Positions 43,227 through 64,000 of a stretch of DNA of 64,000 bases are shown piece after piece. Position 1 is the first letter of the stretch. Every line of letters starts with the position of its first letter. Both the position numbers and the translations under genes were made by a program. Source of the DNA: Eledone cirrhosa (lineage: Eukaryota); assembly GCA_964016885.1 (NCBI GenBank), contig OZ024744.1:54002001-54066000 (forward strand). Direction: 5' to 3'. Under the pieces are notes generated by a model. It was not told the DNA's origin and did not search any database. It was given only the letters and a program-made list of their open reading frames with translations.

Positions 43227-46200
43227 TCAGATATTCAGGACGCATCGGAGGGTTCTTGCTGTTCTAAGCAAGCATGCCTTTTGAAGCGTTCCAAAAAGCG
43301 TGAAGGGGCCGATTTTCTTTAACCATCCCTGGAAACCTTTGGAGATAGTCCCCAGTGCGCCTATGACAATCGGGATCACTTTGACTTCATGGCAGTTCCA
43401 AATCCTTTTCACCTCCCACTTTAGGTCCTGGTATCGGTTAATTTTCTCCCTCTCCTTCTCTTGCACTTTCGTGTCGAACGGGCAGGCCACATCCACAATC
43501 AGGCACGATCTTTTTTCTTTGTCCACAACCACCAGGTCAGGTCTATTGTGTTCCAGTTTTTTGTCCGTCTGTATCCTAAAATCCCACAGCACCTTCACCT
43601 GATTGTTCTCCATCACCGCCTCTGGCCTATGCTCATACCATTTCTCAGAATGTGGTAGATTGTTTACTTTGCACAGGTGCCAGTGGATCACCCTGCCCAT
43701 CACATCGTGTCTCCAGCCCTTATAGTGGGTCTGGGCTAGGTGTTTACACTCGGACACAATGTGAGCCACAGTCTCCTCTCTCTCTCCACAGATCCTGCAC
43801 AGTGGGCTGGCCTCCTCCTTGTAGATATGGTGCTTCAACCACTTCGTTTTGAGGGCCTGCTCCTGCGCAGCCATTAGCATTCCTTCTGTAGCCTTTTTGA
43901 GGTCTCCTCTTCTCAACCAGTTCCATGTCTGTGGATCTCTAAATTCAGTTTTCTCAAAGAAGGTACTATGAAGGGATTTTCCCTTAAGGCTGCTCTTCCT
44001 CCTTGATGTTATTTCCTCCCTGGACATCCCCTGGCCTACTGTCCCCTCCTTCAGTACAGCTCTGAGCATTGGCTCCTTACTATATGTCACGTATTTGTAT
44101 AGGTTGTTTTTCTCCATCTGAACACAGTCCTCTATGCTGATAAGACCTCTTCCACCCTCAGATCTCCTTAGGTAGAGTCTATCGACATCACTCCTCTTGT
44201 GGAACATGTTGTAGATAGTCAATAGCTTCCTAGTCTTCCTATTCATTTCTTTCTGTTCAGCAACATTCCATCTCAGAATTCCCGCACTGTACCTAATAAT
44301 AGACACAGCTCGGGAATTTACTGCGCTTATGGCATTTCTGCTGTTCAGATGTGACTTCAATACGCTCCTTACTCTCCGAATGTATTCAGTTCTTAACAAT
44401 TCCTTCATTTTTTTGTTCTTTATGCCATCAGCCTCCAGAACGCCCAAATACTTGTATCCTTCCTCAGAGTCAATTTCCTTTATCATCTCACCTGTTGGTA
44501 TCTGGATCCCGTTACTTCTGCTCAACCTACCCCTCTTCATCACAATGACTCCACATTTACCAATACCAAACTGCATACATATATCACTGCTGAAAATACG
44601 GACAGTGTCAACAAGCACATCCAACTCCTTCTCACTTTTCCCGAAGAGCTTAAGATCGTCCATGAAGAGGAGGTGATTGATGGTAAGCTCTCCCCTTCCC
44701 AACTTGTATCCTGCTCTCACTTTTCGCAGCATAATGGTCAAGGGCATCAGGGCAAGGACAAACAACAGAGGGGACAGGCTATCTCCCTGGAAGATACCTC
44801 TCTTGATCTTCACGCTTCCCAAGGATACTCCAGTTGATGTCAACTCTGTCTCCCAGGACCCCATACTCCTGCCTAGCAACTGTCTGATGTTATCCGCCAC
44901 CCTGAAGATCTCCAGGCTTTTGGTGATCCAGGAATGAGGCACCATGTCAAATGCCTTTCTGTAGTCTATCCATCCCATGGCAAGATCAGTGTGTCTCCTC
45001 CTGCAATTCCCCATTACCATCTTATCAATAAGCAACTGGTCCTTTGTACCACGTGACTTCTTTCGGCATCCTTTCTGTTCGTCCGGTAACAAGTTGTTTG
45101 TGTGGAGGTGATGGTAGATTTCCTCAGACACAATGCTCGTCAACAGTTTCCACATTACGGGCAGACATGTGATAGGTCTATAGTTGGTAGCATCATTACC
45201 CTTGATTCGGTCTTTCATTATCAGAACTGTGGTACCTTTTGTCAACCACTCTGGCACCTCACCCGACACCAAGCAGTCATTGAACATGGCCGTCAGCTTC
45301 GGGTGGAGGGATGTTAGATGTTTAATCCAATACCCCTGCACACCATCTGGGCCTGGCGATTTCCAGTTGGTTAGTTTTTTGGCTTGTCCCTTAAGAGTTT
45401 CAACTGTGATACTCAAATCAGTCTGTTGCTGTGCCTGCTCACCGATCTCCCTCTGTACTGTCTCAATCCACCCTGCCTGGGCATTGTGTCTAACATCCTG
45501 CTCCCATATTCCTCTCCAGAATGTTTTAGTTTGCTCCGCCCCAGGGATCAAGTCGTTGCCTCTTTCTTTGCCCTCAAGCTGTCCAAACAGCATCTTCTGG
45601 TTGTTGTCGAACATGCGGTTCTGTTTATACTGACTGACTCTGTTCTCGTATCGCCTGATTTTTGCACTCTTTGCTACAATGCGTTGCTTCAATTCCTCTA
45701 TGATAATATTTAGCTTTTTACTCCTAGTTTTGTATTTTATTTCCAGTCTATTTTTAGTGCCTATGTTTTTTAGTGTCCCATTCAGTAGTGACTCAAGCTT
45801 TCCTATGTCATTTCTCATTTCCCCGATTTGCCCACTCAGTCGCTTCTTCCACCACGGCTCTGCTCTTTCTTGTCTGTTGTTTCCTCTCGCTTTTATACCA
45901 AGTAGTTTCCTCACCGTATTTGCTGTTGCTCTGAGGATATTGTTGCACTGGTGAAGGCTCCTCGCCTCAAGGTATGGGATGACTTTGTTTACCTTAGCTG
46001 TTGTTTCTTTTAACTTTTTCCTGTCTACAAATCTTAGGTTCATAGGTCTCCCACTATCATTGTTCAATTCATCTACCACTAAATTTAGGATGTCAACCGA
46101 ATCTTGTCCTAGCCCGTCAGCATTCATCTCCTCAGTGGCCGTATCTCTGTTCCAGGTATTATTTATCTCAGTACTCAGATCATTGTCTGCTTCGGGTGGT

Positions 46201-46619
46201 TCCTCCGTTCTCAGGACCTCCTCACCTTCATTTCCCACCGGCTCGCTTGTCTGGCATACTACACCCGCCATCTCCAAGCCATTCTCTCTGCTCAGTTCCT
46301 CCAGTTCCAGCTCGCTTATCCACCCATTAGTTCTTATTACCCGAGCCTGCCCGGCCAATTTTTGTTCATCTAATTTAAATAAACCAATCTCGTTCCAGAT
46401 GTTATGCATCCGTCTCCTGTAGCCCCTCTCCTTGGGGTTACTTTTCAGGTAGCATTGCATAACAGTTCTATTCAATTCTTTCGTCCAGTTGGTTCTGGCC
46501 CCTTTCCTTCTTCTCCTTCCTCCAACATCAGCAGTATTTGGTTGACAGTCAGGTTCCTGCTGCTGAGCCAGGGGGCACCTGTTGGGTGAGAGTCTGTCAC
46601 ATGACGTTCTAGTCTCCAT
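43227..46619 (-). CDS. Intact 1130-aa RT/RLE polyprotein, near-identical to 273-3665
   Basis: Same motifs; about 17 substitutions by eye. Confidence 0.93.
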   Translation of the reverse strand: METRTSCDRLSPNRCPLAQQQEPDCQPNTADVGGRRRRKGARTNWTKELNRTVMQCYLKSNPKERGYRRRMHNIWNEIGLFKLDEQKLAGQARVIRTNGWISELELEELSRENGLEMAGVVCQTSEPVGNEGEEVLRTEEPPEADNDLSTEINNTWNRDTATEEMNADGLGQDSVDILNLVVDELNNDSGRPMNLRFVDRKKLKETTAKVNKVIPYLEARSLHQCNNILRATANTVRKLLGIKARGNNRQERAEPWWKKRLSGQIGEMRNDIGKLESLLNGTLKNIGTKNRLEIKYKTRSKKLNIIIEELKQRIVAKSAKIRRYENRVSQYKQNRMFDNNQKMLFGQLEGKERGNDLIPGAEQTKTFWRGIWEQDVRHNAQAGWIETVQREIGEQAQQQTDLSITVETLKGQAKKLTNWKSPGPDGVQGYWIKHLTSLHPKLTAMFNDCLVSGEVPEWLTKGTTVLIMKDRIKGNDATNYRPITCLPVMWKLLTSIVSEEIYHHLHTNNLLPDEQKGCRKKSRGTKDQLLIDKMVMGNCRRRHTDLAMGWIDYRKAFDMVPHSWITKSLEIFRVADNIRQLLGRSMGSWETELTSTGVSLGSVKIKRGIFQGDSLSPLLFVLALMPLTIMLRKVRAGYKLGRGELTINHLLFMDDLKLFGKSEKELDVLVDTVRIFSSDICMQFGIGKCGVIVMKRGRLSRSNGIQIPTGEMIKEIDSEEGYKYLGVLEADGIKNKKMKELLRTEYIRRVRSVLKSHLNSRNAISAVNSRAVSIIRYSAGILRWNVAEQKEMNRKTRKLLTIYNMFHKRSDVDRLYLRRSEGGRGLISIEDCVQMEKNNLYKYVTYSKEPMLRAVLKEGTVGQGMSREEITSRRKSSLKGKSLHSTFFEKTEFRDPQTWNWLRRGDLKKATEGMLMAAQEQALKTKWLKHHIYKEEASPLCRICGEREETVAHIVSECKHLAQTHYKGWRHDVMGRVIHWHLCKVNNLPHSEKWYEHRPEAVMENNQVKVLWDFRIQTDKKLEHNRPDLVVVDKEKRSCLIVDVACPFDTKVQEKEREKINRYQDLKWEVKRIWNCHEVKVIPIVIGALGTISKGFQGWLKKIGPFTLFGTLQKACLLRTARTLRCVLNI

Positions 46620-46923
46620 TTCACCGTTATTCGAACTGTTTATGTTCGATATTTAAACACTCTTATCGAGGATTGGCGAATGTATGTTTACATAGCCATC
46701 TGTGGATCCGCCATCCCACTTGGCCCTTGTGTGGCATTATCACCACGCTGTATACGAACACACATAAACAAACAAACACACAGGCAGAAAGGGCCCCAGA
46801 AATGAATAAGCATAAGTTTCATTGTAATGTAGTGTTCGAATGTCTGACTTAGTTTTAGTTTTTTAAGTTTTACTTTTTCCCCCCTCTTCTCTGTCCGTCC
46901 GCCTGCTTCTCTCTTCATTCTTA

Positions 46924-48225
46924 TTTTCTTTACGTTTTTGGGGTTTCTTTTTTTTGTTTTTGTTTTTCTCTGTTTGTTTTTCTCGTTTTTTTGCTGTTGT
47001 TGCTGTGCTGCTTTGGTTTTGTTGTTTGTTTTTTCTTTTTTCTTTTGGGTCTATCTATATATTTTGATGCCTTCCTCTTTGTTAGTAGTAGGAATTCTAT
47101 AATGTGGAAGTAACAGCCAGCAGGGAAGTGGGAGACTGGCGGCGTTAGCGATACTGAGACAGTGGTGGTGGTGATGTCGATACCGAGGCAGTGGTGGCGG
47201 TGATGTGACCGTATTACTGTAGTGATGGTGCTGTAGCGGAGTCAAGGGGTGGTGGCGGCGGTGCTGGGATAGTGGTGGTAATGATGGCCGTAGTGAGCGG
47301 TGGCGGTGAAGGTGAAAATGTGTCGTTATCTGGCTGTTGTGTTTAGTGTACACAGATGATGGGGTGGGTGGTGTATCTAGTTTCTGGTGTTGGTGAGTTT
47401 AGCTGTCCTATATAGTGTAGCCAGAGGAGAGGAGGGGAGGGGTTCTTCTTCCATTTATAGCCATTTTTTTTTTTTTTTTTTTTTTTTTGGGATATACAGT
47501 GTACAATACAAAGTTGAATATTTGAATATTTGAGCCTTATAACAATATATTTTCTTTACGTTTTGAGCCTTATAACAATATATTTTCTTTACGTTTTGAG
47601 CCTTATAACAATATATTTTCTTTACGTTTTTGGGGTTTCTTTTTTTTGTTTTTGTTTTTCTCTGTTTGTTTTTCTCGTTTTTTGCTGTTGTTGCTGTGCT
47701 GCTTTGGTTTTGTTGTTTGTTTTTCTTTTTTCTTTTGGGTCTATCTATATATTTTGATGCCTTCCTCTTTGTTAGTAGTAGGAATTCTATAATGTGGGAG
47801 TAGCAGCCAGCAGGGAAGTGGGAGACTGGCGGCGTTAGCGATACTGAGACAGTGGTGGTGGTGATGTCGATACCGAGGCAGTGGTGGCGGTGATGTGACC
47901 GTATTACTGTAGTGATGGTGCTGCAGCGGAGTCAAGGGGTGGTGGCGGCGGTGATGGGATAGTGGTGGTAATGATGGCCGTAGTGAGCGGTGGCGGTGAA
48001 GGTGAAAATGTGTCGTTATCTGGCTGTTGTGTTTAGTGTACACATATGATGGGGTGGGTGGTGTATCTAGTTTCTGGTGTTGGTGAGTTTAGCTGTCCTA
48101 TATAGTGTAGCCAGAGGAGAGGAGGGGAGGGGTTCTTCTTCCATTTATAGCCATTTTTTTTTGGATATACAGTGTACAATACAAAGTTGAATATTTGAAT
48201 ATTTGAGCCTTATAACAATATATTT
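46924..48225. repeat. ~690-bp tandem duplication in the Dong 5' UTR, with a short (~33-bp) repeated unit at the junction
   Basis: 46924-47560 approximately equals 47614-48225; ttgagccttataacaatatattttctttacgtt x3 at 47529-47630. Confidence 0.85.
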
Positions 48226-48367
48226 TGGGTCCGAATTTTTTGGGGCTCAAGCCGGGTGCTTTACGTAGCATTTGTGCTAAGAGTTGTTATTTCACAAATG
48301 GTTTAAATATGTTAAAAATTCAAAACTTACGGGAGCGATTTCATGACCTCCGTCACCTCGTGCGTCT

Positions 48368-48406
<39 letters not shown>

Positions 48407-48408
<2 letters not shown>

Positions 48409-49450
48409 GTTGCATTTATCTTGCTTTATGTTCATACGAGTTATCACCAAGTCACAACCAGTGACCTCAAGAGACAACAAGGTCCGCCATGTTCAAGAAA
48501 GAACATACATACTCACACATGCATCTTTAGTGTTTAGACTTGTGATGTACTTATATTGACGGAATCTTCCTTAGTATATGGGCAGTTCCCATTAGTACTA
48601 TCTTTTGTATTTCTCCTATACGCGGGTTTCCTGGGATTTGCGATAAGTAATCATTAGACCCCTTAGGTATCATTCCCAGAGCGCCTACAACTACTGGTAT
48701 TGTTTTAGTTCTCAATTTCTACATTTTTCCAATTTCTATCTCCAGGTCCTTATACTTGCTCAATTTTTCAAATGTTTTTATAGATACATTCTTGTCTATT
48801 GGAACGGACATATCAATTAGCAGACATACCCTCTTTTTAAAGTCCTTCAATATTATATCAGGTCTATTTGCATCTATTTTTCGGTCTGTTTGGATGCTAA
48901 AGTTCCACAAGATTGAGATGTGATCTTTTTCTAGTATGGGAGGTTGTTGATGCTCCCACCAATTCTTTTGATGGGGCAGGTCAAAATGCTTACACATTAT
49001 CCAATGTATGTATTGTGCAGCTCTGTCATGCCTGTTTAGGTATTCGGTTGGAGCTATAGGACTGCACATTGAAATTATATGGTCAATGGTCTCTGGTTGT
49101 TTTTTACATACACGGCATAATGGGCTGCATCCATTTTTTATTATGTTGCCTTGGTAATTTTTTGTTGGCAGACACTGATCTTTTGCTGATATAATCAGTC
49201 CTTCAGTCTCCGATTTCAGTCCAGAGGATGCCAACCACTGATGGGTTAAAGTTTTGTCAACATCAGGATTGTTAGCTCGTTCTGGGTATTTTCCATACAG
49301 AGGCTTTTCTTGCCATTTCTTAGCCAGTTTCTGTAGCAGTTGTTTCTTCGCAGTTATTTTTACCTGCTTTGCTTTTTCTGTGTTTTCCATTTCAGCAGTA
49401 AATGGGACTTCTGAGATGTGTAGTCCATTACTGGTACCTCACCTAACATC
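48407..49450 (-). mobile_element. 5'-truncated RLE element of a third R4/Dong-like family (knuckle + endonuclease)
   Basis: LKSETEGLI, CRVC..ETIDHIISMC, RHD, RPDIIL..LIDMSVP, KLSKYKDL; (ATT)n on both sides. Confidence 0.85.
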
Positions 49451-49451
49451 A

Positions 49452-49483
<32 letters not shown>

Positions 49484-49770
49484 CTCCTCCCCCTCCTCCT
49501 CCTCCTCCTCTTCTTCTTCTTCTGACAAGTAAAGGCTCTACCAGGAGTGACTCTGATGTCTGAGCTACGCACTTTATCGAGTAACGTTACTCCAAAGACC
49601 CTTCAGAGGAACCCCATTTCGGCCACTTGTATTGGCGATCCTATCCTTTCGGTCATTGCCCAAGATTCATGACCAAAGGAAAGGGTTAGCACAAAAACCA
49701 AATTGAAGATAGCGAGTTTGGTACACATGAATCAGCAAGAGAGTACCTCCTCACACTCACACACACACAC

Positions 49771-49816
<46 letters not shown>

Positions 49817-49957
49817 GCACACAAATAAACATACATATCTTTACTTTCTTTATTCAATAGAAAATCTGAATTCTGACACCCCAGCGAACTAACCATATAC
49901 ACTGAACCAGAACAATTCTCCTATCCCATTTCTCTTGACCATTATCTTTTACTTATC

Positions 49958-50121
49958 GGTAGAGGGTCGGACGCCATGCTTTCCAGCATAGTTACGTCCC
50001 TTTACGATCTGAGTTCAAATCCCGCCGAGGTTAACTTTGCCTTTCATCCTTACGGGGTCGATAAAATAAAGTACCAGTAATGCACTGGATAATTGCTGGC
50101 CTTGTGCCTAAAGTAGAAACA
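49958..50121 (+). mobile_element. SINE, slightly 5'-truncated, with 17-bp target-site duplication
   Basis: attatcttttacttatc at 49941-49957 and 50122-50138. Confidence 0.85.
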
Positions 50122-50606
50122 ATTATCTTTTACTTATCATAAAATTCTCTAAAAAGGCTACAGAATTGATTTCCAAATAAGGGCGCGAATATTTGATGAA
50201 AACTTGTTCACGTGACAGCCATAAATTCATTTATAACCAATCAAATTACGTTTATTAAAAAAAAGCCTTCGTGAGCCCCCTTTTTAAGTAAAAAGAAATT
50301 CAAACACTCATATATGAAAAAAAAAAACCTGTGACACCCCCCACCCCCACCCCCTTGTTTGAAGAACTTTGTAACGGGAAATGGCGCGAAATTTATTATA
50401 ATTATTGACCAACCAATCAAATTACTTCTCCAAAAACCTGGCATTTCGAGCCACTTTTTCCATATAAAACAAGTAACATTCAGAGACCAACCAGATGTGA
50501 GAAAAACCACAGACCCTCCATCTCAACTCTACTTTTGAAAAGCAGAAGAACTGCGAAACCGGTAAAGGAACCAAATAAATATATATTTATTTCATCTTTT
50601 TTTCTA

Positions 50607-50659
<53 letters not shown>

Positions 50660-51132
50660 CCTGCTACTAATTTTGTCTCCCAAGTTGTGAATTAGACTGG
50701 TTATTTACGCACGTGGCTGACACATTTCAGCTCGCTACGATATTGGTATATAATGGATGATCGCATTTAATGTCCGTTAAAGGTTCTTGGCACTACCTTT
50801 GTTACCATCGCTTTCCTCTAGCCATGGGGCTTGCAGACATGAACCGAATGCTACCATTCAATTTTATATCAATGTGAACTGCTATTTCTTTTCATCCCTT
50901 GATAATTTGTGTGTGAGACACGTTGTCTGAGGGCTTCTGACACGAACTAATAGATTGATTCTTTATAGCTTCCCGTCCCCACGTAAAATTTGTAAATCAG
51001 TGGCTAGTTGAGAGATAGAGTCCTATCGGTTGCCAGTTGATCGCTTTACCGTGTCGGTTGTAACAAACAGTCATTATCGGCACGGGCCTGTGTCTGGATT
51101 ATGTCGATCGATTGGTTATTGATTAGGCGATA

Positions 51133-51242
51133 CTCGCTGATGAAGCAGCATAAGCCGATTGTGCATTGTTGCATAATATATGCAGACAGATAGTGCAGTG
51201 CACGTTACTGCTGCATTAGTGCTGCAGAAACTCGAGTCCGGG
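51133..51242 (+). ncRNA. Type I hammerhead ribozyme, extended stem II, palindromic stem III
   Basis: ctcg CTGATGA a gcagca...tgctgc a GAAA ctcgag TC cggg. Confidence 0.7.
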
Positions 51243-51394
51243 AACCTTATGTGCACCCAATTTACGTGTGTTGTGTTGAGGCAAATAACTATGTGTGTGA
51301 GACACGTAATGTATCTTACATTGTCCATTGAGTGCGCTGAGATACAACCGGTACTGGCATTGAAAAATATGGTGGGTCCGTCAACCCTTATTAT

Positions 51395-51457
<63 letters not shown>

Positions 51458-51540
51458 GGAGGTGAGTTTTATTGTAGTACAATAAAGCAATGCAGATATC
51501 GGATAAGAAGCACTCTACAGTTTGTAGGACTGGAGTATGC

Positions 51541-51870
51541 ATAATATAAGATCAAAAGATGGTTAAAGGAGTTCCATGTATTTTATTATGCGCATTTCAA
51601 AAACAAACATCATCATGCAATAATATTTGTGTTTTCATCAGATAAAACAGGAGAACATGATATGAAGGCTAAAAAACACTTGTGGATAGTGCAGTTTTAA
51701 ATCAACATATATGTTGATTTAAAACTGCACTATCCACAAGTGTTTTTTAGCCTTCATATCATGTTCTCCTGTTTTATCTGATGAAAACACAAATATTATT
51801 GCATGATGATGTTTGTTTTTGAAATGCGCATAATAAAATACATGGAACTCCTTTAACCATCTTTTGATCT

Positions 51871-51878
<8 letters not shown>
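51541..51878. repeat. 338-bp perfect spacerless palindrome
   Basis: Arms are reverse complements around 51709/51710 (aaatcaacata|tatgttgattt). Confidence 0.92.
51770..51840 (+). ncRNA. Type I hammerhead ribozyme (mirror copy on minus strand 51579-51649)
   Basis: tgttttat CTGATGA ..acaaatatt/gatgtttgt.. GAAA tgcgca TA ataaaata. Confidence 0.7.
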
Positions 51879-51941
<63 letters not shown>

Positions 51942-52073
51942 TATATATGTAATCTAAGATTTTCGAATATAATAATAATATTCGATTCGTTTGCAATTAT
52001 TTATGCAAACAGCCTCGTTTAAGGCATGTCAGTAGAATGAGCCCCTCATTTTTGCTCTTGTGTTGGCATGTAA

Positions 52074-52120
52074 ACTGTACTGATGAAGGGTAATCACCCA
52101 GAAACATCAGTGTCTGCAGT
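52074..52120 (+). ncRNA. Type I hammerhead ribozyme in the loop of a long inverted repeat
   Basis: actgta CTGATGA a gggt aatc accc a GAAA ca tcag tg TC tgcagt. Confidence 0.75.
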
Positions 52121-52284
52121 TCTGTTTACATGCCGACACAAGAGCAAGAATGAGGGGCTCAATCTACTGATATGGCTTAAAAGAGGGTGTTTGCATAATT
52201 GCAAACGAATCGAACATTACATTTATTGTATTCAGCCATATAGAGTGATAACTATTTGTTAGTTATTACACACACACACACACG

Positions 52285-52373
<89 letters not shown>

Positions 52374-52375
52374 CC

Positions 52376-52474
<99 letters not shown>

Positions 52475-52819
52475 TATACATATATATATACATATATATA
52501 TTTATTAACATAACAGATTAAAGTTTAAGCAAAGAATCGCTGCTTTCACCCTTAACGGGATCTTCTGTTATTTTAATAAATATTTGCTCTTCGGTTCTTA
52601 TATATTGGATATATATTTTCCTTATCGAGCCCTCTTTGGATTTTAGTCTTCAATTTTATTATTATTACTATACATATATATATAAAGTTAGTATGTTTTG
52701 AAACAGCGAGCAAGTTTGAAATTAGAAAATAGAAGCTTTCATCGTATTTTTTTTACTAAAGAAATGTTATCCTGATAGTGGGGTTTAGAACCCTCAGAGA
52801 AATGGAAAAAGGTGAGTAT

Positions 52820-52890
52820 TGACGTACATGGGAGTCGAACCCACATCTTTGGTTATCCAGACCACTGTGCTACCATTACACCAACACATC
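52820..52890 (-). pseudogene. tRNA-like sequence (pseudogene or SINE head)
   Basis: gatgtgt TGGTGTAATGGtagcac..gtgGGTTCGACTCCcat gtacgtc; G-U-rich acceptor stem, imperfect anticodon arm (loop CTGGATA). Confidence 0.55.
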
Positions 52891-53066
52891 ACCTATATAT
52901 ATAATGATTAAAAGTTTAACAAGGTTCATTGAATTAATCAATGAATAAAGTTTTACAATAGATTAGAAGCACTCAACTGCGAGGTTTTCTGGAGTTATTA
53001 ATATTACTAATGTATAATAAAATATATTTGATCACATGAATGTCTATATTTATTAATATTCTGAAG

Positions 53067-53759
<693 letters not shown>

Positions 53760-54600
53760 TGATTTATAAAATTATAACTTGCTATAAAATAACATAATAT
53801 TCATACTCTAATTACATTATTAAGATGGAAAATTTAATTTTTTAACATCTTAACTTTATAGCATTTAATCCTTAAAGCTATCTAAATTATTAATAAATCA
53901 CTAGCAATTTCCTTTACGCTCTACTGCTATTACAAATAAGGGATTATTCTTCTGTAAACTCTCGGAATTTCCATGGGCTTAGAAATATTCGGATATTTTA
54001 AACTTACAAATTTTTAAAAATAATTAATTAATAATTAATAAAATTATATATGGTTTTGTAATAATAGCATATTTTCTAATAATATATATTTTAATAATAT
54101 ATATTCTTTAATAATATATAGGTCTCAATTTTAATAATCTAACATACACATTTAAACTACGGATTGAATTGATAAATTATTAATTAAACATTTAATCAAA
54201 TTTATTAATTAAACATTAGATAAAATTCTTCAACTTATCATTATAATGAATCCGGATATTATTATTTATCCACGCTTTATTATTTATTGTTTACCCATGC
54301 TACGGTATTCATCCACGCTATATTCATTTCTTCGCCTCTTCTCTCAAAATTACGCTATTCTCTCTCACTTAAATATACTCAGGTTTTTCTCTTTCTTTCT
54401 TTCGTTTTTTCTCGTTCTTTCTTTTTTCCCTATTCCAACGGTTTAATTTAAATATACTGTTATTTAAACCTTTCCGACACTAATTTGCATAATAAACCAA
54501 CAATAAATCTAATAACTCCACTATCCAGAAGATTCCAACCAGAATGGTTGCATTTTTTCAGGGTAAGTCAATATTTATTTATAAAACTAACCTATATTAA

Positions 54601-54664
54601 ATTTTATCTGATGGAAGCGCACCATAGTTTGCTTTGGTGGCCCTTGAAATATGTATAATGAAAT
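54601..54664 (+). ncRNA. Hammerhead-like motif (core CTGATGG, A9 altered), relative of 59784-59849
   Basis: ttttat CTGATGG aag..ctt GAAA tatgta TA atgaaa; downstream ~50 nt match 59830-59885. Confidence 0.5.
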
Positions 54665-54745
54665 AAATATGGTTTTATAAATATAGTTTCCATTTGTTAA
54701 TATATTGTATTATATATATATATTGTATTATATATATATATGTTG

Positions 54746-54840
<95 letters not shown>

Positions 54841-54843
<3 letters not shown>

Positions 54844-56060
54844 CAGATTAAAGTTTAAGCAAAGAATCGCTGCTTTCAGCCTTAACGGGATCTTCTGAAA
54901 CTAACAAAGTCAATCTGTGAACGCAGAAGTGAATATTTCAAAAAACGTTGCAACCAGAGGAAGACAGGGAGACGATACTTTGGTTCGTGGAAACGTTCCT
55001 TGGCAAAGAACGTCATTATTTGGAGCGGTGAAAAACAATTACAGGCAAAGTGTGTGCGTGTATACAAATAATTAAATAAACGTATATAAATAAATAAATA
55101 CGTATATAACAAGCGCACACACATACCTACATCTAAATACACATATGTTCGGAGACGTACAAGCATACGAGAAAACACTCGGCATAGGTATACAAATACA
55201 CGCACATATAAATATGTGTGTGTATACAAATAATTAAATAAACGTATATAAATAAATAAGTACGTATATAACAAGCGCACACACATACCTACATGTAAAT
55301 ACACTTATTTTCGGAGACGTACGTTAACCAAAACACGAAGTACACATATATAAACACCCTACATACGTACGAACCGGCCTACTCACATAGACGCAAAACT
55401 AACGTATACACATAACCAAAAGCATATGTACCAGAATATATAAAATATACAATCAAATATACGTTCGAGAAAGTATACGTACCTTCACAAAACATACAGG
55501 TAATATATATTTATCTATACAAATAAGTAATGGTATAAACATAACATATCCTTAGCTACCACATCAAGACGTAAAATATCCGCGTATAGATCGTACTATC
55601 CGTTAGGGTATAATGTGGGGCTGTAATACAGGAAAGTTTTGTGCAATTTATGTTTACAAGCCGAAAATGCCTCAGATTTTTTGTTTAAGATGTGGTCTGT
55701 GGCGTAGAGTATTTCCAGGGCCTCAGCGGCGCAGAGGTCACATGGTCTTTTATTTCCGTTATACGATCTAGCCCTAGCTAGGATCTCCCAGTGTAACTTA
55801 TATTGGGTGTGGTTGTCTTTTAGACTCCAGATATAAGCTGAAAGTGACGTCATATTCCTTCTTAGAGGGTAACGAAAAGAATGGGTATGCATGTAAAGAC
55901 GCTGCTTGAATCTATTGGCGGTTAACCCTATGTAGGCCCTACGGGACGTGGGTGTTTCATCCTTTGCTCTACGGTTCTTATATATTTGATATATATTTAT
56001 CCTTATCGAGCCCTCTTCGGATTTTAGTCTTCAAATTTATTATTATTACTATATATATAT
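54841..56060 (-). mobile_element. Penelope-like 3' fragment (GIY-YIG endonuclease half + 3' region) between (TA)n tracts
   Basis: AYIGLTANRFKQRLYMH..SLSAYIWSLKD..CDLCAAE..LNKKSE..CKH (55596-55940). Confidence 0.8.
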
Positions 56061-56173
56061 ATATTGCTTTCTTCACAACTTTGCCACCGGGAAGGTGGCC
56101 GATCAATGTTAAGAGAAAGAAACTAGATATTTATGTATACATATATATATATATATATAGGAAAAGAGTCAGG

Positions 56174-56269
56174 ACCCCGACGGCTGAGCTCCGGCAGTTT
56201 CGATAGCTAGATCCGAACTAAACCAGTAGTATTAGGACGGTAGGGACCTAGCTGAACTTATCAAGGGGT
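56174..56269 (-). ncRNA. Hammerhead with U3-A8 core variant in a PLE pseudo-LTR-like segment
   Basis: Minus strand acccc TTGATAA g..agctaggtcc/ggatctagct..c GAAA c tgccggagctcagcc GTC ggggt. Confidence 0.55.
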
Positions 56270-56879
56270 ACAGTCCATATATGGGCATGCAGTCAAAAGA
56301 GAGTAGACGTATGAAATCAAACAATCCTACATATTGTTGTTTTTCTTGTCTGTCACGGGGAGTGGTCAATGATTTTGGGATATCATATACATGGTTAAAT
56401 CCTTTATAGCGGCGGAGAGGGGGGGGGGGGGGGTGAACTGCCCTGTAGAACAAAGAGGAGGGAGTAATATGACATTCCGACCTGTGGATGCCAAGCCGGT
56501 CAATCGTTAAGAGAGAAATCTTTACAACTATCTCTAAAATAGGGGTAAAATCAGCATATGAGAATCACTGAATGTTGTAGAGTGAAAGTGTGTAAGCCAG
56601 GTCTAACAGTTGGCTAAAGAGCAAATCAAAAAGAAGTTAACACTAATTAAATTCCTAATTAATAAAATTTAGTTATCAGTTATTCTCCTGCACTGGAACA
56701 GCACCTCAATATAGTAATTTACCAATATTATCTTCTATAATGATACACACAAAAAAAAGAAACCATGGCTATGTGTTCGGCCGGTACTATGTATATTTAA
56801 CAAGAGGGAAAATATTCGGGTTAACCTAAGGAAGAAAGGAGACTGAATATAATAGTATAGATATGCAAAGATACACCAA

Positions 56880-59150
56880 AGTGTTTTCTTAATATTCCAA
56901 CAAACTCACGAGGGCATCCAAGTTTCTCCAATATGACCCACAATGCACTACGATTAACAATATCAAAGGCTTTGGTAAGGTCCACAAATACTTGCTAAAG
57001 TAACACTTACTGCTCAACACACTTTTCCATAAGCTTAGGGGCTGAGAAAATCATGTCCATAGTACACCGCCCAGCTTTGAATCCACATTGGGTCTCAGGG
57101 ATGGCACCAGAGCAGATCCATTTTATTAGACAGCAAAAGCAAGGATAAGAATTGTCCTACCGCTTCGAGCAGACTTATATCATGATACACCGCATGCCGA
57201 CTTGGAGCCCTTGCCCTTGTAAATCGAGAGCAATATTGCATCTATCCATTCTTGCGGGACAGGAACGCCTTGCCACGTAGATAAGACTAACCCATGAATG
57301 GCTATAGCAACATTGTTTCCTCCAAAGCAGATCAGCTCAACAGCTATTCCATCCAAACTCGGAGTTTTCCCTATGTTCATCTCTTTGATAATAGACCTTA
57401 TCTCATCAATGGTTGGATCAGACATTATCTCTGTTACAGTCTCCCTTTCTGCCACTCCATTGATAATTTCCTCATCAAATAAAGAAGGGTTGTCAAACAG
57501 ATCTTTAAAGAGTTCAGTCCACCGACGCTTGATATCTGCTGGATCTTTGATGAGTATTTTCCCATCATTTCACTTTAATGATCCCATTTTTGTGGGATGT
57601 GGGCGAAATACTTGGCTTATTGTGCTGTATATTATTTTCAAGCCTCCGCAGTTATAAACCCTCTGCATCCCTGCAGAAACTCCAGACCACCAGCTGTTCT
57701 TCATCTTTTGAGTTACATTTGTCGTTGCAGTTTTGATTTACTTCTCCTCAATAGTAGTGCTCAATGGACCATCTGCAACAAGGCACTTCTCATACAACTT
57801 GTTCTTTTCTTCAATGAACATGGTGATTGTAGCATCATTATCATCAAACCAATCTCTGTGCTTTGTCTTTTTAAGACCAATTACATCAGCACCAACACTG
57901 TAAACATGTGTCTTAAACTGTCCCCAAGTACCATCAAAGACGACGTTGTCAAGTGCCTTTTGAAGAGAATCTCGCATTTCTACACTTTGCAGTTTTGACA
58001 CACCTATACGTCTTGGCACTTGTACCCCTGCTGCCCTCAAAATTCATCTGATCTGCACCTTCATTTTCTCACGCACGATTTTGTGGCCTATACCACATTC
58101 TGCACCACGCATTACTCTGACTGAACAGATATTCTAGAGGTCTCTCTTCCTGGTGATGCTATAATCCTAGATGTATCCATGTTTCGATCTTGGGTGTAAC
58201 CACGTGGCATTGTGGATATCCTTTTACTGAAAAAATGTTACATATGACCAGCTCAAACTCAGTGCATAACTGCAAAAGAAGGGCACTGATATTCATCTTG
58301 CCCATGCAGTGATATCCTAAAACATTCCAGTTGTGGTCGTCCTTTCTCACACATACACTAAAATCTCCAAGAAGCAAGATCTTATTCGAATCTGGAATTA
58401 ATGTTATACATCCTCGTAAATCTTGGTAAAAAGCCATGATTTATTCTTATTAATCTGCAGGGTAGGGTCATACACTGAGATGACAGTGATGAAACCTCCC
58501 CTTGAAAGAGGAACTCTTAGGTGCATGATACGATCACTAATGCCTTGGGGTTGCTCCAGTAGTTTTGTGATCTCTGTCCGGACACCAAAACCTACCTCCA
58601 TTCCTTCTCTCTCTATTTGGTTTCACTTTGCAGAAGAACATATAACCAGCACCCCTCTCTGATAGATGACCTTCCCCACTAAAACGGGTTTCAGAGAGTG
58701 CAGCTATATCAAAATTATATCTGCTCAACTCTCTGCCAACAACAGCAGTCCTGCGTTCTGGATTGGTCGATGGTTCCTTGTTAAGACGTGTTCGTATGTT
58801 CCACGTCGCAAGATTCTATTCCTTTGAAAATTATTATTATTTTTCTTGTTTCTCCTGCGGGTATGAACAACCGCCTGCCGCAGGTTGCTGACCAACTTAA
58901 TGGTAGAACAAACAATGTTTGGCTCACCTTTTCTAAACCCCTCCCAATATTTTGGTGGGCAGTGCTCTCCTTGGAAAGGGCTGCTCAGTCACAAAAGACT
59001 CCACCCAATCCAGCTCCTATTCCGAAAACTGGCAACGACGTTAGATAAGCCTTAAGCCGCCTGCGTGCAGATTAGCAACTGCATACCTCCAACTCGTTAG
59101 GTCTGTACACTTCACTGCTTCGCCATCGCCACAGGACTTTGAAGAAATAT
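56880..59150 (-). mobile_element. Decayed RTE LINE (5' UTR, APE endonuclease, first half of RT)
   Basis: DIAALSETRF, ISDRIMHLR, LLGDFS, KHRDWFDDN, QCGFKAGR, FVDLTKAFD. Confidence 0.8.
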
Positions 59151-59411
59151 CTGCACGAGGAGATCATAGCATCATATACTTGTGACACAGCCAGAATCTG
59201 GTGACAAGCAAATACAAGATGATTTGTAGCTGTATCAACCGCAGGTATTTCAGAGTGTCCTCTAAAAAAAAGTTTTTCCAGATAAATAATAATTAGGTAA
59301 AATAGTTTAAATGAAAGTTATTTAAAAGATTAAAAGACAAAAAGAAAAATAAATGAATAAATAAATGAAAATAACATGCACACGCAAATTTACACACCTA
59401 AACAGTATATA

Positions 59412-59444
<33 letters not shown>

Positions 59445-59465
59445 CTCTCTCTCTATATATATCTA

Positions 59466-59511
<46 letters not shown>

Positions 59512-59592
59512 AAAGTTTTATTTAAAATTGTTGGGTTACAACGAGTAAATATTTTATAACTGATATAAAGCACTCAACAAGTTTTGGAGTAG

Positions 59593-59895
59593 ATATACGA
59601 TATTAAACAAATGGAAACTATATTTATAAAACCATATTTATTTCATTATACATATTTCAGGGATACCATATTAAAAATATGGCATGCCTTCTTCAGATAA
59701 ATTACAATATATAAGCAGTTTTATAAATAAATTTGACGTACCATAAAATATTGATCAACTTCCATTTAAAAAAGTTGGTTATGTATTTTATCTGAAGAAG
59801 GCATGCCATATTTTTAATATGGTATCCCTGAAATATGTATAATGAAATAAATATGGTTTTATAAATATAGTTTCCATTTGTTTAATATCGTATAT
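59593..59895. repeat. ~108-bp inverted repeat (59593-59701 / 59787-59895), PLE pseudo-LTR type, hammerhead in each arm
   Basis: Arms are reverse complements; flanked by (TA)n. Confidence 0.85.
59784..59849 (+). ncRNA. Type I hammerhead ribozyme
   Basis: tattttat CTGAAGA agg..atgccatatt/aatatggtat..cct GAAA tatgta TA atgaaata. Confidence 0.7.
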
Positions 59896-59909
59896 ATATA
59901 TATATATAT

Positions 59910-62188
59910 AACGGAGGAAATGTGGTAAGGAACCAGGTGGACCATAACGCACCAAAGTACTCAATACTTAGGGTAGTAGAGTGGGTAATAGGTACGAGTA
60001 GGACCCCGACGGCAGAGCTCAAGCCGTTTCGACAGCTAATTCTGGACTAAATGAAAATTTTTATCCTGGTATTTGAATAGCCGAGCTTCTCAAGGGGTAA
60101 TTCCATATATGGTAAAAGTGATTGTCACAAGGATTGGTCAAAAGTTTGTTGTTAAGATATAATAATTCTATCATGGCAATTTGTGGAGGGAAGGGGTAGC
60201 TGAACCTGCCAGTAGGAGAAAGAGGGAGAGGGGTGGAGGAGACCCAGTCATGCGTTGATAGTGCCGACTACAGCTGGGCATGAGGTCAAAGAAGATACTA
60301 GGGAGGGGGAGGGGGAGGAAGTCGAAACAATAAGTAAAACAATATGGGGTAAATATATAGAAAAATACTGAGTTTGTTAAAAAGCAATTAAATGTAAAAG
60401 AAAAAAAAAAAAAAACTGTTTCTGGTTACTACAACCTAAGGACAGCTATCAAGTCTCTCACTGGTACTGCTAGGCTAAAGAAAGGTTACTAGGTGGGACG
60501 GAATTATACAGAGACCCTTTTAAGAGGTATAAGTAAAAAACCGAGTATATCTTACGGTGGCGGGTCAACAAATGAGGGGCCAAAATACTAAAGAAACTAC
60601 CACGAAATAATAAATAAAGGTTTCTACCCCAGGCACAAGGCCAGAAACCACCCAGTGCAAAAAAATAAACTAATACGAAATAATAATTCAGAATTCCGAA
60701 AAAGAATACTAATACTATCTCTAAGGTGGCCGCCAAGATACAAAAATTCTAGTGCAAACTACATAAATGCTCGTACGAAGTATATGTAAAATTTGATACG
60801 GAAAATTAATTCAGAACCCCCCCCCCCCCCCAAAAAAAAATAAATACTGATATACGAGAAATTAAAGCAAAGATACCCCTAAGAAATATAGAAAGCACGG
60901 AAAAGGGGCAGCGATCGGATAAGAAGGCAAGTATCCAGGGTCTAACACATCTGCTATAAAAAGCGGAGTCGGCCAAATCTACCACAGAATAGAGGAAGGG
61001 GTGGGGGTACTGAGGCTACAAAGGACCGAGGGGTTGCCTCGGGTGGGCGAGAAAATGAAAAGGACGACGACAAAGAAAGAGGACTGGGGTGGAAGGACTA
61101 GGGGTGGGTGGGGGATGAAGGAAATATAGAGGAAGCGATAAAAAGATATAAAAGAAGATCTTACGTCTACCTTTGCAAGCAGGGGTTACCCATTACAAAA
61201 TCGGCAAGTGGGGTGTTATAGCCCTAGTCACCCCCCACCCCCCGGGTCATTATGGGGTTTGAGGGCGAGGTAAGTCCTACGCAATCTGTGTTTACATGCA
61301 GTAACCAGTTCGTCTTTCTTGTTTAGGAGTTGGTCCGTCGAAAACAGCATTTGTAAAGTTTCCTCCGAGCATAAATTGCACGGACGGCGTCCTCCCGTGT
61401 AAGAGTTGGCTCTGGACAGTAGTGAGATCATAGGTAATGTTGTTATCCTTGAGGTCCCATATGTGGCCCGAAAGTGTAGTGGAGTGACGCCGGGCCGGGT
61501 TTCGGAAGGTATGTATGTGTTGGTATAGCCGGGTCTTGAAGTCACATGCGGTTAAACCTATATAAGCTTTGTTGGAGATGTCCGTCCTCACGTTGCACTG
61601 GTAGATCACATTACGATCTCTGCATCTGTTGTCGAGGGGGCAAATTGATCCATCAGGGTCCCTGTATAATTCCGTCCCACCTAGTAAACCTTTCTTTAGC
61701 CTAGCAGTACCAGTGAGAGACTTGATAGCTGTCCTTAGGTCGTAGTAACCAGAAATTGTTTTTTTTTTTTTTTTTTAATTTTACATTTAATTGCTTTTTA
61801 ACACTCTCGGTATTTTTTCTATATATTTACCCCATATTGTTTTACTTATTGTTTCGACTTCCTACCCCTCCCCCTCCCTAGTATCTTCTTTGACCTCATG
61901 CCCGGCTGTAGTCGGCACTATCAACGCATGACTGGGTCTCCTCCACCCCCTCTCCCTCTTTCTCCTACTGGCAGGTTCAGCTACCCCTTCCCTCCACAAA
62001 TTGCCATGATAGAATTATTATGTCTCAACAACAAACTTTTGACCAATCCTTGTGACAATCACTTTTACCATATATGGAATTACCTCGTGAGAAGCTCGGC
62101 TATTCAAATACCAGGATAAACATTTTCATTTAGTCCAGAATTAGCCGTCGAAACGGCTTGAGCTCTGCCGTCAGGGTCCTACTCGTTC
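59910..62188 (-). mobile_element. 5'-truncated Penelope-like insertion: GIY-YIG fragment flanked by ~525-bp inverted pseudo-LTRs
   Basis: VIYQCNV..KAYIGLT..FKTRLYQH, CNLC..E, LNKKDE..CKH (61228-61650); 59994-60517 is the reverse complement of 61656-62186. Confidence 0.85.
60003..60098 (-). ncRNA. Hammerhead with U3-A8 core variant (mutated mirror copy ~62082-62177, + strand)
   Basis: Minus strand acccc TTGAGAA g..cggcta/tagctg..c GAAA cggc ttgagctct gccG TC ggggt. Confidence 0.6.
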
Positions 62189-62229
62189 CTATATATATAT
62201 ATATACACATACATTTACACACCTGTACA

Positions 62230-62267
<38 letters not shown>

Positions 62268-62524
62268 TGTGTAGGTGTGTAAATGTATGTCTAAACCTTA
62301 TGCATTTCTACAGTAGTTCTACAGATGAATGTGAATGTGAACTCTCAGAATTGGCACATATTGAGTAGGGGACCCCTGGGGGCAGGAACCTCTTTTTGGA
62401 AAAAGCAGATAAGTTTGTAAAAGTATAGTTTTCGAAGCAGCACTGAAGTATTGACATAAATGGTATACATAACTGCTATTTAATACCCGAACAACGCCGC
62501 TTACGTCTGCTAGTATATATATAC

Positions 62525-62710
62525 ACCATTGGATGACCGTTGACTCTCGCGAGTTCCTCCGCCCTTTGTCAGGTCTTGTTTTCATCCTGCAGGGTGTCCA
62601 ATCACCCTGCCCACCAAGCAAACTTGGTGGGATTGCCATCTCAGTCCCCGACGACCTGACCATATAACTGGTTGTACTGGGATACATGTTACCAGTAACA
62701 CGACCTGACA
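62525..62710 (-). mobile_element. RTE 5'-end-like fragment
   Basis: Similar to 26965-27100 and 63650-63840. Confidence 0.6.
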
Positions 62711-62749
62711 ACATACATATATAATTCCATATATACATGTATGCATGTA

Positions 62750-62900
62750 TACCTACCTACCTACCTACCTACCTACATACCTACCTACCTACCTAACTAA
62801 CTACCTACCTACCTACCTACCTACCTACCTACCTACCTACCTACCTACCTACCTACCTACCTACCTACCTACCTACCTACCTACCTCCCAACCTACATAC
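62750..62900. repeat. (CCTA)n microsatellite grading into (CATA)n
   Basis: Direct reading; abuts the RTE 3' end. Confidence 0.9.
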
Positions 62901-63840
62901 ATGATGGCTGCAAACTCTGCCAAGGGCATTGCAATCGCTTGTCAAATTCAGATGTGTGACGCTCGGATATGGCTTTTCAAGCCTACTAGAGACTTGCACT
63001 CTTCACACATTGACGACAACTATGGATCTCCCTGGCTTGAGGTTCTGAATCAGGTTGCCTGTGAACCCTCACAACACCGTGAAGATCATAGTTCATGGCT
63101 GCGATTGTGGCTCCTGACACCAGATTTGCTAAAGCAAATATTTCCACACTCAGGGCACTTCAATTCAATGGAGACACCGATCGTTTCGAGAGATACACCA
63201 GGGCATTCCTTACGCACATCCCGTTTGATCTTCTCTTGCTCTATGCGCCAATCCTCAAAATTATGGATCCCATCATTCACTATCCCACGCCAAGTTTCTC
63301 TTTCAAGAGCTTCTATCTCCCAGTCAGCCATAATCAAACCAATCACTTGTCAGATTATAGAAAATGGTGCACTTTTAGGCCACGGCCAGCCACATAAACC
63401 TGTAACAGATCCTGACCAAACAATGCGTGTACTTTGAAGGTTTTTTAAGTGGGAAAAAGCCTTGCACTTGACCAATCCCACTCTCTGAGCCTCGAAAACA
63501 CTACCCAAAAAGGAGAACTGGTCAATATCATCCGATGCTTCCGAAGCCGCAGGTTTTTTGTTTTTTTTCAGGATTTCCCTCTCCTAGAAAGGTGTTGTGA
63601 CACCGACCGGGGCCTTTTACTCCTGGGTGGAAAAAGAAAGTACTATTTGGATGGTCGTTGACTCTGCTGAGTTCCTCCGTCCTTTGTCGAGTCTTGTATT
63701 TCATCCTGCAGGGTGTCCAACTATCAACCTCCTGCCCAAGCAAGCTTGGTGGAGTTGCCGGTTTCGTCGCCGACGACCCGACCATGAGACCGGTTGTACT
63801 TGGTTACATGTTACCCGTAGCACTCGAGAGCGACCTGACA
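62901..63840 (-). mobile_element. Internally deleted RTE-family element (5'-UTR-like part 63430-63840 joined to zinc-finger 3' part)
   Basis: WEIEALERETWR..KRDVRK..CPECGNICFSKSGVRSHNRSH; ctaggagagggaaa and gtgggattggtcaagtgca motifs. Confidence 0.65.
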
Positions 63841-64000
63841 TACATGCATGTACGTGTATATATATATATATATATATCATCATCATCATCAGCGTTTAAC
63901 GTCTATCTTCCACGCTAGCATGGGTTAGTCGGGAGTTGTCCCACTTGAAGCAAGATTGGTTGGGTGACGGAGTCTCTCTCGTTTAGGACTACCTGGCAGG

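Follow-up and report, generated by a model that had tools for sequence, protein, structure and literature searches.

Do two hammerhead motifs with U-A in place of C-G at core positions 3 and 8 belong to a ribozyme that works in the cell, and is that pair indispensable to it? The question is raised by a 64,000-nt stretch of the Eledone cirrhosa genome (assembly GCA_964016885.1, contig OZ024744.1, positions 54,002,001 to 54,066,000 of the forward strand; hereafter the window), whose minus strand carries two such motifs, A and B. An earlier note on this DNA had identified them as hammerheads in the pseudo-long-terminal repeats (pLTRs) of Penelope-like elements (PLEs), and this identity holds. Taking the sequence evidence together, we consider it probable that they belong to a Hydra-clade PLE, that the ribozyme cuts a minority of transcripts at GUC|G in the cell, and that U3-A8 is the preferred, but not an obligatory, 3-8 pair.

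Two type I hammerheads with a U3-A8 core

Hammerhead A (60003-60098, minus strand; subfamily A4) has the core UUGAGAA (U3-G7-A8), with U3 at 60093, A8 at 60088, C17 at 60008 and the palindrome GAGCUC starting at 60020. Hammerhead B (56174-56269, minus strand; the older sister subfamily B) has the core UUGAUAA (U3-U7-A8), with U3 at 56264, A8 at 56259, C17 at 56179 and GAGCUC starting at 56191. Stem I (ACCCC/GGGGU), G10.1-C11.1, GAAAC, the GUC site and a 56-nt stem II domain are common to both, and the segments, cores and shared letters are present as the earlier note had described them. That note had also seen a stem II of different sequence in each; however, A and B are identical at 70/97 positions, and stem II is thus homologous between them. 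Loop III of hammerhead A consists of 2 nt, GAGCUC and 1 nt, an arrangement reminiscent of retroviral dimerisation loops.

Both motifs are real type I hammerheads. Stem I is open, and stems II and III are closed round the core. U4, G5, A6, A9, G12, A13, A14, A15.1-U16.1, G10.1-C11.1 and an NUH cleavage site are all in place, and these core letters are invariant in the 12 subfamily consensuses described below. Positions 3 and 8 form a Watson-Crick pair in A and B, and fail to do so in 1,412 C3·A8 relatives. A strict type I descriptor matched the window at exactly A and B (n=2) and found nothing in 200/200 controls (n=200), in which dinucleotide units were shuffled inside 2-kb blocks. Each of the two copies has changes of its own, and neither folds better than shuffles do (z ~-0.55).

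The 3-8 pair is established (PMC3884650), and U3-A8 is a known natural variant (PMC3088659, PMC4209133), as the earlier note had stated. Natural U3-A8 hammerheads with the same compensated core were reported active in vitro by Perreault et al. 2011 (PMC3088659), whose available text describes no C3·A8 lineage, unlike what we find here. In PLE pLTR hammerheads the U3-A8 core has been published with its own descriptor since 2014 (PMC4209133). The claim that pattern searches would miss this lineage is borne out for Rfam, which, searched to E=10 over window 44000-64000, returned 111 matches with no hammerhead family among them; given the 2014 descriptor, the variant is not beyond known searches.

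The Cercyon PLEs of Schistosoma mansoni (Cervera and de la Pena 2014, PMC4209133) are alike in type I topology, pLTR location, U3-A8 core and palindromic loop 3; they gave ~1,300 U3-A8 hits and occur as inverted and solo copies, as here. The lineage studied here departs from Cercyon in its 5-bp stem III, closed by a 9-nt loop, and in its stem II domain of 54-58 nt, where G10.1-C11.1 is followed by a 2x1 loop. In addition, A9 and 10.1 are directly adjacent, and the lineage has a C3·A8 stage and cut-site junctions. Minimal hammerheads have a stem III that is absent or 1-2 bp and an extra nucleotide between A9 and G10.1. The present motifs differ on both counts (stem III is 5 bp, with 96.5% of cells paired) and agree in the palindromic loop 3 and the pLTR location, the latter seen in the tandem array and at locus L096, where one motif stands 190 nt upstream of the first AUG and another at the 3' end.

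Selection on the ribozyme

Twelve subfamily consensuses were derived from 154 full motifs, with 7 motifs excluded (groups under 3 or unassigned). Invariant columns make up 10/10 of stem I, 11/12 of the core (p=3e-8), 2/2 of G10.1-C11.1, 9/12 of lower stem II, 7/8 of stem III and 6/6 of GAGCUC, against only 11/93 upstream. Positions 4-6, 8, 9, 12-14, 15.1, 16.1 and 17 show zero change, and N7 took all four bases. A U3-A8 consensus is true of most subfamilies.

Across 17 chosen copies, 89.8% of cells are paired, and each of the 19 cells with double changes lies in stem II. This pairing level was reached by 0/500 shuffles, a control that related rows inflate. The 3-8 pair, for which the earlier note had proposed a covariation check, behaves otherwise: no double change was found inside the lineage among these 17 copies, and 3/8 covariation is seen only against C3-G8 relatives, which comprise all Hydra motifs listed by Craig et al., metagenome relatives and a sister family in the same genome. 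The double change had been read as a sign of selection. The ribozyme is indeed selected, as the core and upstream columns demonstrate, but the pair was not kept throughout. For a copy of the young family the predicted minimum-energy fold is the hammerhead, owing to a stem II pair that this subfamily gained.

An element with the features of the Hydra clade

Among the relatives in the 3.0-Gb host genome are copies whose open frames are intact over 784-788 codons, as well as a tandem array with a period of ~3.54 kb; intact 717-aa open reading frames (ORFs) also occur in tandem arrays. One array (G000:C1:91470500-91490499; L091, L092) holds about five near-identical full-length copies with open frames. 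The elements end ~20 or ~100 nt beyond the cut site. Their single ORF encodes a reverse transcriptase (RT) and, at the C terminus, a GIY-YIG endonuclease, and the protein (P0001) has DKT replacing DKG, a CxCX5C linker and no CCHH; insertion is into (TA)n. Pfam support is weak, with no match for the whole ORF and E=0.026, which falls short of the cut-off, for the GIY-YIG fragment in the window. The Neptune clade was rejected as an alternative, since its CX2-5CxxC linker, CCHH and DKG are missing from the ORF protein.

By these defining features, as read from sequence with the reference elements compared by eye, the element is a Hydra-clade PLE lineage. It shares DKT, CxCX5C, the lack of CCHH, the C-terminal GIY-YIG and (TA)n targets with the clade of Craig et al. 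2021 (bioRxiv 10.1101/2021.04.23.441226 = PMC8557442), and Hydra-1_Obim, as given in the supplement text, is closely alike by eye. Clade members are generally <3 kb, whereas the present unit is 3.54 kb with a 1.1-kb 3' untranslated region (UTR). The Hydra hammerheads listed in File S2 of that paper all have CUGANGA cores and a short stem II, unlike those described here.

A distant Hydra-type subfamily (L243, L262, L263, L136), its endonuclease ~33% identical, ends in the 3' half of the motif. This half copy has a GAGCUC loop, a GUA site and no recognisable 5' core, as if it had been captured.

Insertions that begin at the predicted cut site

The predicted 3' cleavage product is identical to the 100-nt tail that follows the cut site, and this tail recurs in the genome as stand-alone insertions. 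A tail was counted as a junction when it departed from the consensus at each of its three upstream letters. The first pattern gave 313 junctions at the site (G-run insertions included), 11 at -6 and 66 at +5, the last control being inflated by inverted arms that end at the site. In a stricter class A or T was required beside G1.1, and the neighbour classes were split by eye from listings. The young tail then has 114 site junctions versus 6,954 intact, with 6 neighbours at +1, 15 at -1 (several of them perfect palindromes at the site) and 2 at -6. The CCTACTCG tail has 64 versus 7,414 intact, with 24 at +1, 20 at -1 and 9 at -6. The subfamily B tail has 34 versus 1,393 intact, and the ATACTTG tail 21 versus 1,062, six of the 21 in one cluster.

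Inspection of single loci gave 7/12 clean cases in a first set, besides 4 G-run insertions and 1 ambiguous locus, and 17/20 in a second set from which G-run rows were omitted. The C3·A8-era CCTACTCG set gave 21/30 clean cases, 6 ambiguous ones and 3 deletions, and subfamily B gave 7/15. Clean junctions are of three types: a bare 100-nt tail directly abutting (TA)n; palindromes whose two arms both stop at the site, with 1-3 bases added; and head-to-tail concatemers rejoining at G1.1. Such a double stop is frequent in palindromic copies. At one locus (L305, G000:C2:332356500-332361800), concatemers of the 3' cleavage product are each rejoined at G1.1, as template jumping predicts.

We read these junctions as RT run-off at a real 5' terminus that the ribozyme had generated. 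The short insertions starting at GUC|G are likely to be a genomic record of self-cleavage in vivo.

Most insertions come from RNA that was not cut at the 3' motif, as two observations suggest. The stem III-GUC part has 48,362 matches in the genome versus ~5,000 for the 5' core, and in 23/30 and 16/30 cases unselected tails stop within the 3' arm of stem II, 35-45 nt upstream of the site. These clustered 5' ends may point to a part of stem II that is tightly folded or bound by protein. Tens of thousands of palindromic insertions of 100-250 bp across the genome (e.g. L334-L393) consist of back-to-back 3' ends of the lineage.

A mismatched episode in the history of position 3

Whole-genome exact counts in the lineage-A context, which covered U3 or C3 with A8 plus non-A8 cores, gave 2,927 U3-A8, 1,412 C3·A8 and 33 non-A8 cores, the last including 12 U3-G8 and 5 C3-G8. 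G8 never spread (17/4,372). Random decay was rejected as an explanation for C3, given 1,412 C3·A8 versus 12 U3-G8. Subfamily B has 224 matches, and the first 100 listed hold 91 U3-A8 and 0 C3; the older A0 group has 461, with 92 U3-A8 among the first 100 listed.

A tree of 71 copies and 1,484 columns, with position 3 removed and the root placed on B, has the order A0, a ladder of 16 C3·A8 copies, and one clade of 39 U3 copies (Shimodaira-Hasegawa-like approximate likelihood-ratio support, SH-aLRT, 99) that includes window copy A (L061). Monophyly of the 16 C3·A8 copies was rejected (approximately unbiased, AU, test; log-likelihood 272 lower) after one long B row and two duplicate rows had been removed. 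The sampling followed search hits and is non-random, and pLTR and body may have recombined. In the endonuclease part of the C3·A8 grade, 10 synonymous versus 2 non-synonymous changes in 69 codons indicate that the mismatched masters were coding and selected.

The order U3-A8, C3·A8, U3-A8 makes window copy A a revertant, its subfamily A4 being the one in which U3 first reappears after the C3·A8 grade. Within the motif, position 3 is the sole difference between the consensus of A4 and that of the C3·A8 subfamily A3. The earlier note had taken the U3-A8 pair as kept unbroken. Instead, about one third of lineage-A cores carry an uncompensated C3·A8 in successive coding masters.

Probable cutting in the C3·A8 era

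A site in the tail of the CCTACTCG group tracks position 3, with one letter in 13/13 U3 copies and the other in 12/13 C3 copies. The C3-era letter is found in 17/21 clean CCTACTCG junctions, which indicates that C3·A8-era RNA was cut too. The junction rate is 0.86% for CCTACTCG versus 1.64% for the young tail (p=4e-5), and in a strict both-arm class scored by eye it is 9/7,414 versus at least 33/6,954 (p=8e-5).

Several observations weigh against an active ribozyme with a preference for U3-A8. Cleavage is not the rule, since site junctions account for 0.9-2.4% of the tails counted, and a single inspected junction copy (L300) continues into the ORF. The peak persists in C3·A8-era tails, at 64 against 24 and 20 for the adjacent positions, and U3-revertant tails are not enriched in junction copies (3/30 vs 4/30 intact). 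The strict class shows no difference between B and the C3-era tails (p=0.14), nor between the young and the early ATACTTG group (p=0.31), the latter being mostly C3 (7/10 cores). The young family is less decayed and has the extra stem II pair, so its higher rate is not assignable to position 3. In a tested PLE ribozyme the single 3/8 mismatches C3G and G8C abolished activity (PMC11167929), C3·A8 being outside that test. The Rfam result is counted on this side as well.

Alternative explanations and a proposed mechanism

Two alternatives are possible, though we doubt both. In the first, the C3·A8 ribozymes had no activity in cis, and ribozymes of older U3-A8 copies cut their RNAs in trans by way of strand-swapped dimers for which GAGCUC is the nucleus. 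All 12 consensuses share an unchanging stem I and GAGCUC, and stem III is nearly as constant (7/8 columns). The stem III segment is predicted to be far more stable as a swapped duplex than as two hairpins (-30.7 vs 2 x -7.1 kcal/mol), and a misfold with CUCAG is predicted to become accessible with C3 (-26.9 vs -22.8); dimeric action is also the published model for PLE hammerheads (PMC4209133). However, a 5-bp stem III suffices for a monomer, and donor transcripts would have to be postulated for the C3·A8 era.

The second, to which we give a similarly small chance, holds that the fold was kept mainly as a recognition or initiation signal for the protein of the element, with cleavage as a tolerated side reaction. 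It would explain why the short element end sits at the base of an extended stem I and why most insertions derive from uncut RNA. Ribozyme mutants were without effect on insertion in vitro (PMC11167929), and the sister Hydra-type family described below, in which position 4 is A in all sampled copies, points the same way. A mere signal does not, however, account for catalytic positions that stayed unchanged over 12 consensuses while N7 took four bases, or for the return of position 3 to U.

It is improbable that the junction peak reflects an RT stop at the boundary of core and stem III, a cellular nuclease or end-joining favoured by G-runs, with a ribozyme that may be slow or dead. The peak is indeed present in C3·A8-era tails, microhomology of 1-2 nt explains some junctions (6/30 in the C3·A8-era set and several others), and RT halts readily in this structure, as the 5' ends 35-45 nt upstream indicate. 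Yet the peak is one base wide and falls on the bond predicted by the hammerhead consensus. A stop at the entry of stem III would retain C17, and the corresponding -1 class holds 15 cases versus 114. The counted class needs A or T beside G1.1, which CG microhomology cannot supply, and both arms end at the identical base with added letters.

The strict form of the earlier note, an obligatory compensated U3-A8 pair selected in both copies, is very unlikely: despite the U3-A8 majority in B, A0 and the young family and the failure of G8 to spread, it is contradicted by the 1,412 C3·A8 cores, the 16-copy ladder and its conserved ORF, unless recombination between pLTR and body has produced a spurious C3·A8 grade.

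We then propose a model for the preferred reading, in which the ribozyme cuts a minority of transcripts. Since elements end ~20 or ~100 nt past the site, reverse transcription would start downstream of it, probably at two points, by analogy with Poseidon_Ac in vitro (PMC11167929). On uncut RNA, RT would read through the site and mostly halt 35-45 nt upstream; on cut RNA it would run off at G1.1, often adding 1-3 bases. Two cDNAs would then be joined head to head within (TA)n. The C3·A8 masters would have stayed autonomous, their RNA still being cut, less often, either by residual activity or with a U3-A8 partner through the palindromic loop; help from a protein may also be considered. Least supported is the step in which cutting of the upstream copy in a tandem would release an uncapped RNA of unit length.

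Poseidon_Ac (PAc) of Anolis (Frangieh et al. 2024, PMC11167929) offers a comparison. Its two RT starts downstream of the hammerhead explain an optional tail, as here, and AT-rich targets and uncut RNA as the main template are shared as well. It belongs to another clade and has a C3-G8 core, unlike the present lineage. Frangieh et al. detected no RNA-seq reads starting or stopping at its cut site, whereas genomic insertions begin there in the lineage studied here.

Other insertions in the window

Hammerhead A lies in a 5'-truncated Hydra-clade PLE copy (59908-61657, minus strand) with a frame-disrupted GIY-YIG end, a ~1.1-kb 3' UTR, the pLTR and the tail (59908-60007, minus strand), ending in (TA)n. 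The same insertion has an inverted partner arm (61655-62192, plus strand) that ends ~20 nt beyond the cut site in (TA)n. Within this arm lies a third, decayed hammerhead (about 62082-62177, plus strand) with G3 and stem I changes, which the earlier note had overlooked. Hammerhead B lies in a 0.73-kb fragment of the subfamily B 3' UTR and pLTR without an ORF (56157-56884, minus strand), which also ends ~20 nt beyond the cut site in (TA)n. The possibility that A and B are the two pLTRs of one element was rejected; each marks the 3' end of a separate insertion, the two coming from sister subfamilies. An RTE-like long interspersed nuclear element (LINE) remnant separates the two. It lies at 57000-58900 (minus strand) and is decayed, its apurinic/apyrimidinic (AP) endonuclease and RT motifs being read by eye.

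The sister Hydra-type family is represented by a hammerhead-like motif with a CUU site at 54850-54905 and a GIY-YIG fragment at 55596-56030, both on the minus strand. Its motif has C3-G8 but A at position 4 (CAGAAGA) in 49/49 sampled copies. The family is young and abundant, and its endonuclease is 52-55% identical to that of the lineage studied. Short palindromic insertions of other PLE families, at 51641 and 59696 (minus strand) and at 51778, 59792 and about 54600 (plus strand), carry canonical C3-G8 minimal hammerheads. An ORF at 48719-49438 (minus strand) resembles what we take to be the C-terminal restriction-like endonuclease region of a non-LTR element, and a tRNA-like match of 49.7 bits at 52820-52890 (minus strand) is possibly a tRNA-derived repeat.

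Significance

Cervera and de la Pena 2014 state that they have no in vivo evidence (PMC4209133), and self-cleavage by PLE hammerheads in vivo is reported as not shown in two papers. Our literature search, of incomplete coverage so that novelty is provisional, found no C3·A8 master lineage with reversion, no insertions anchored at a PLE hammerhead site and no such long-armed hammerhead form in the Hydra clade. What appears to be new, provisionally, is the cleavage footprint together with the mismatch episode; the U3-A8 core alone is ordinary.

A bolder view, which we offer only as a speculation, is that the genome serves as a fossil activity assay. The inserted cleavage products would show GUC|G cutting in vivo across a natural U3-A8, C3·A8, U3-A8 experiment, in which mismatched 'cheater' ribozymes would have persisted through many generations of masters with help from the protein of the element or from U3-A8 partners pairing through the kissing-loop-like GAGCUC palindrome.

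The footprint and the mismatch episode render the open question testable. A count of the insertions beginning at the scissile bond offers a simple test for any genome with high-copy PLEs and gives a read-out per subfamily, and the C3·A8 grade provides natural, dated variants for probing how strict the 3-8 pair is in the cell.

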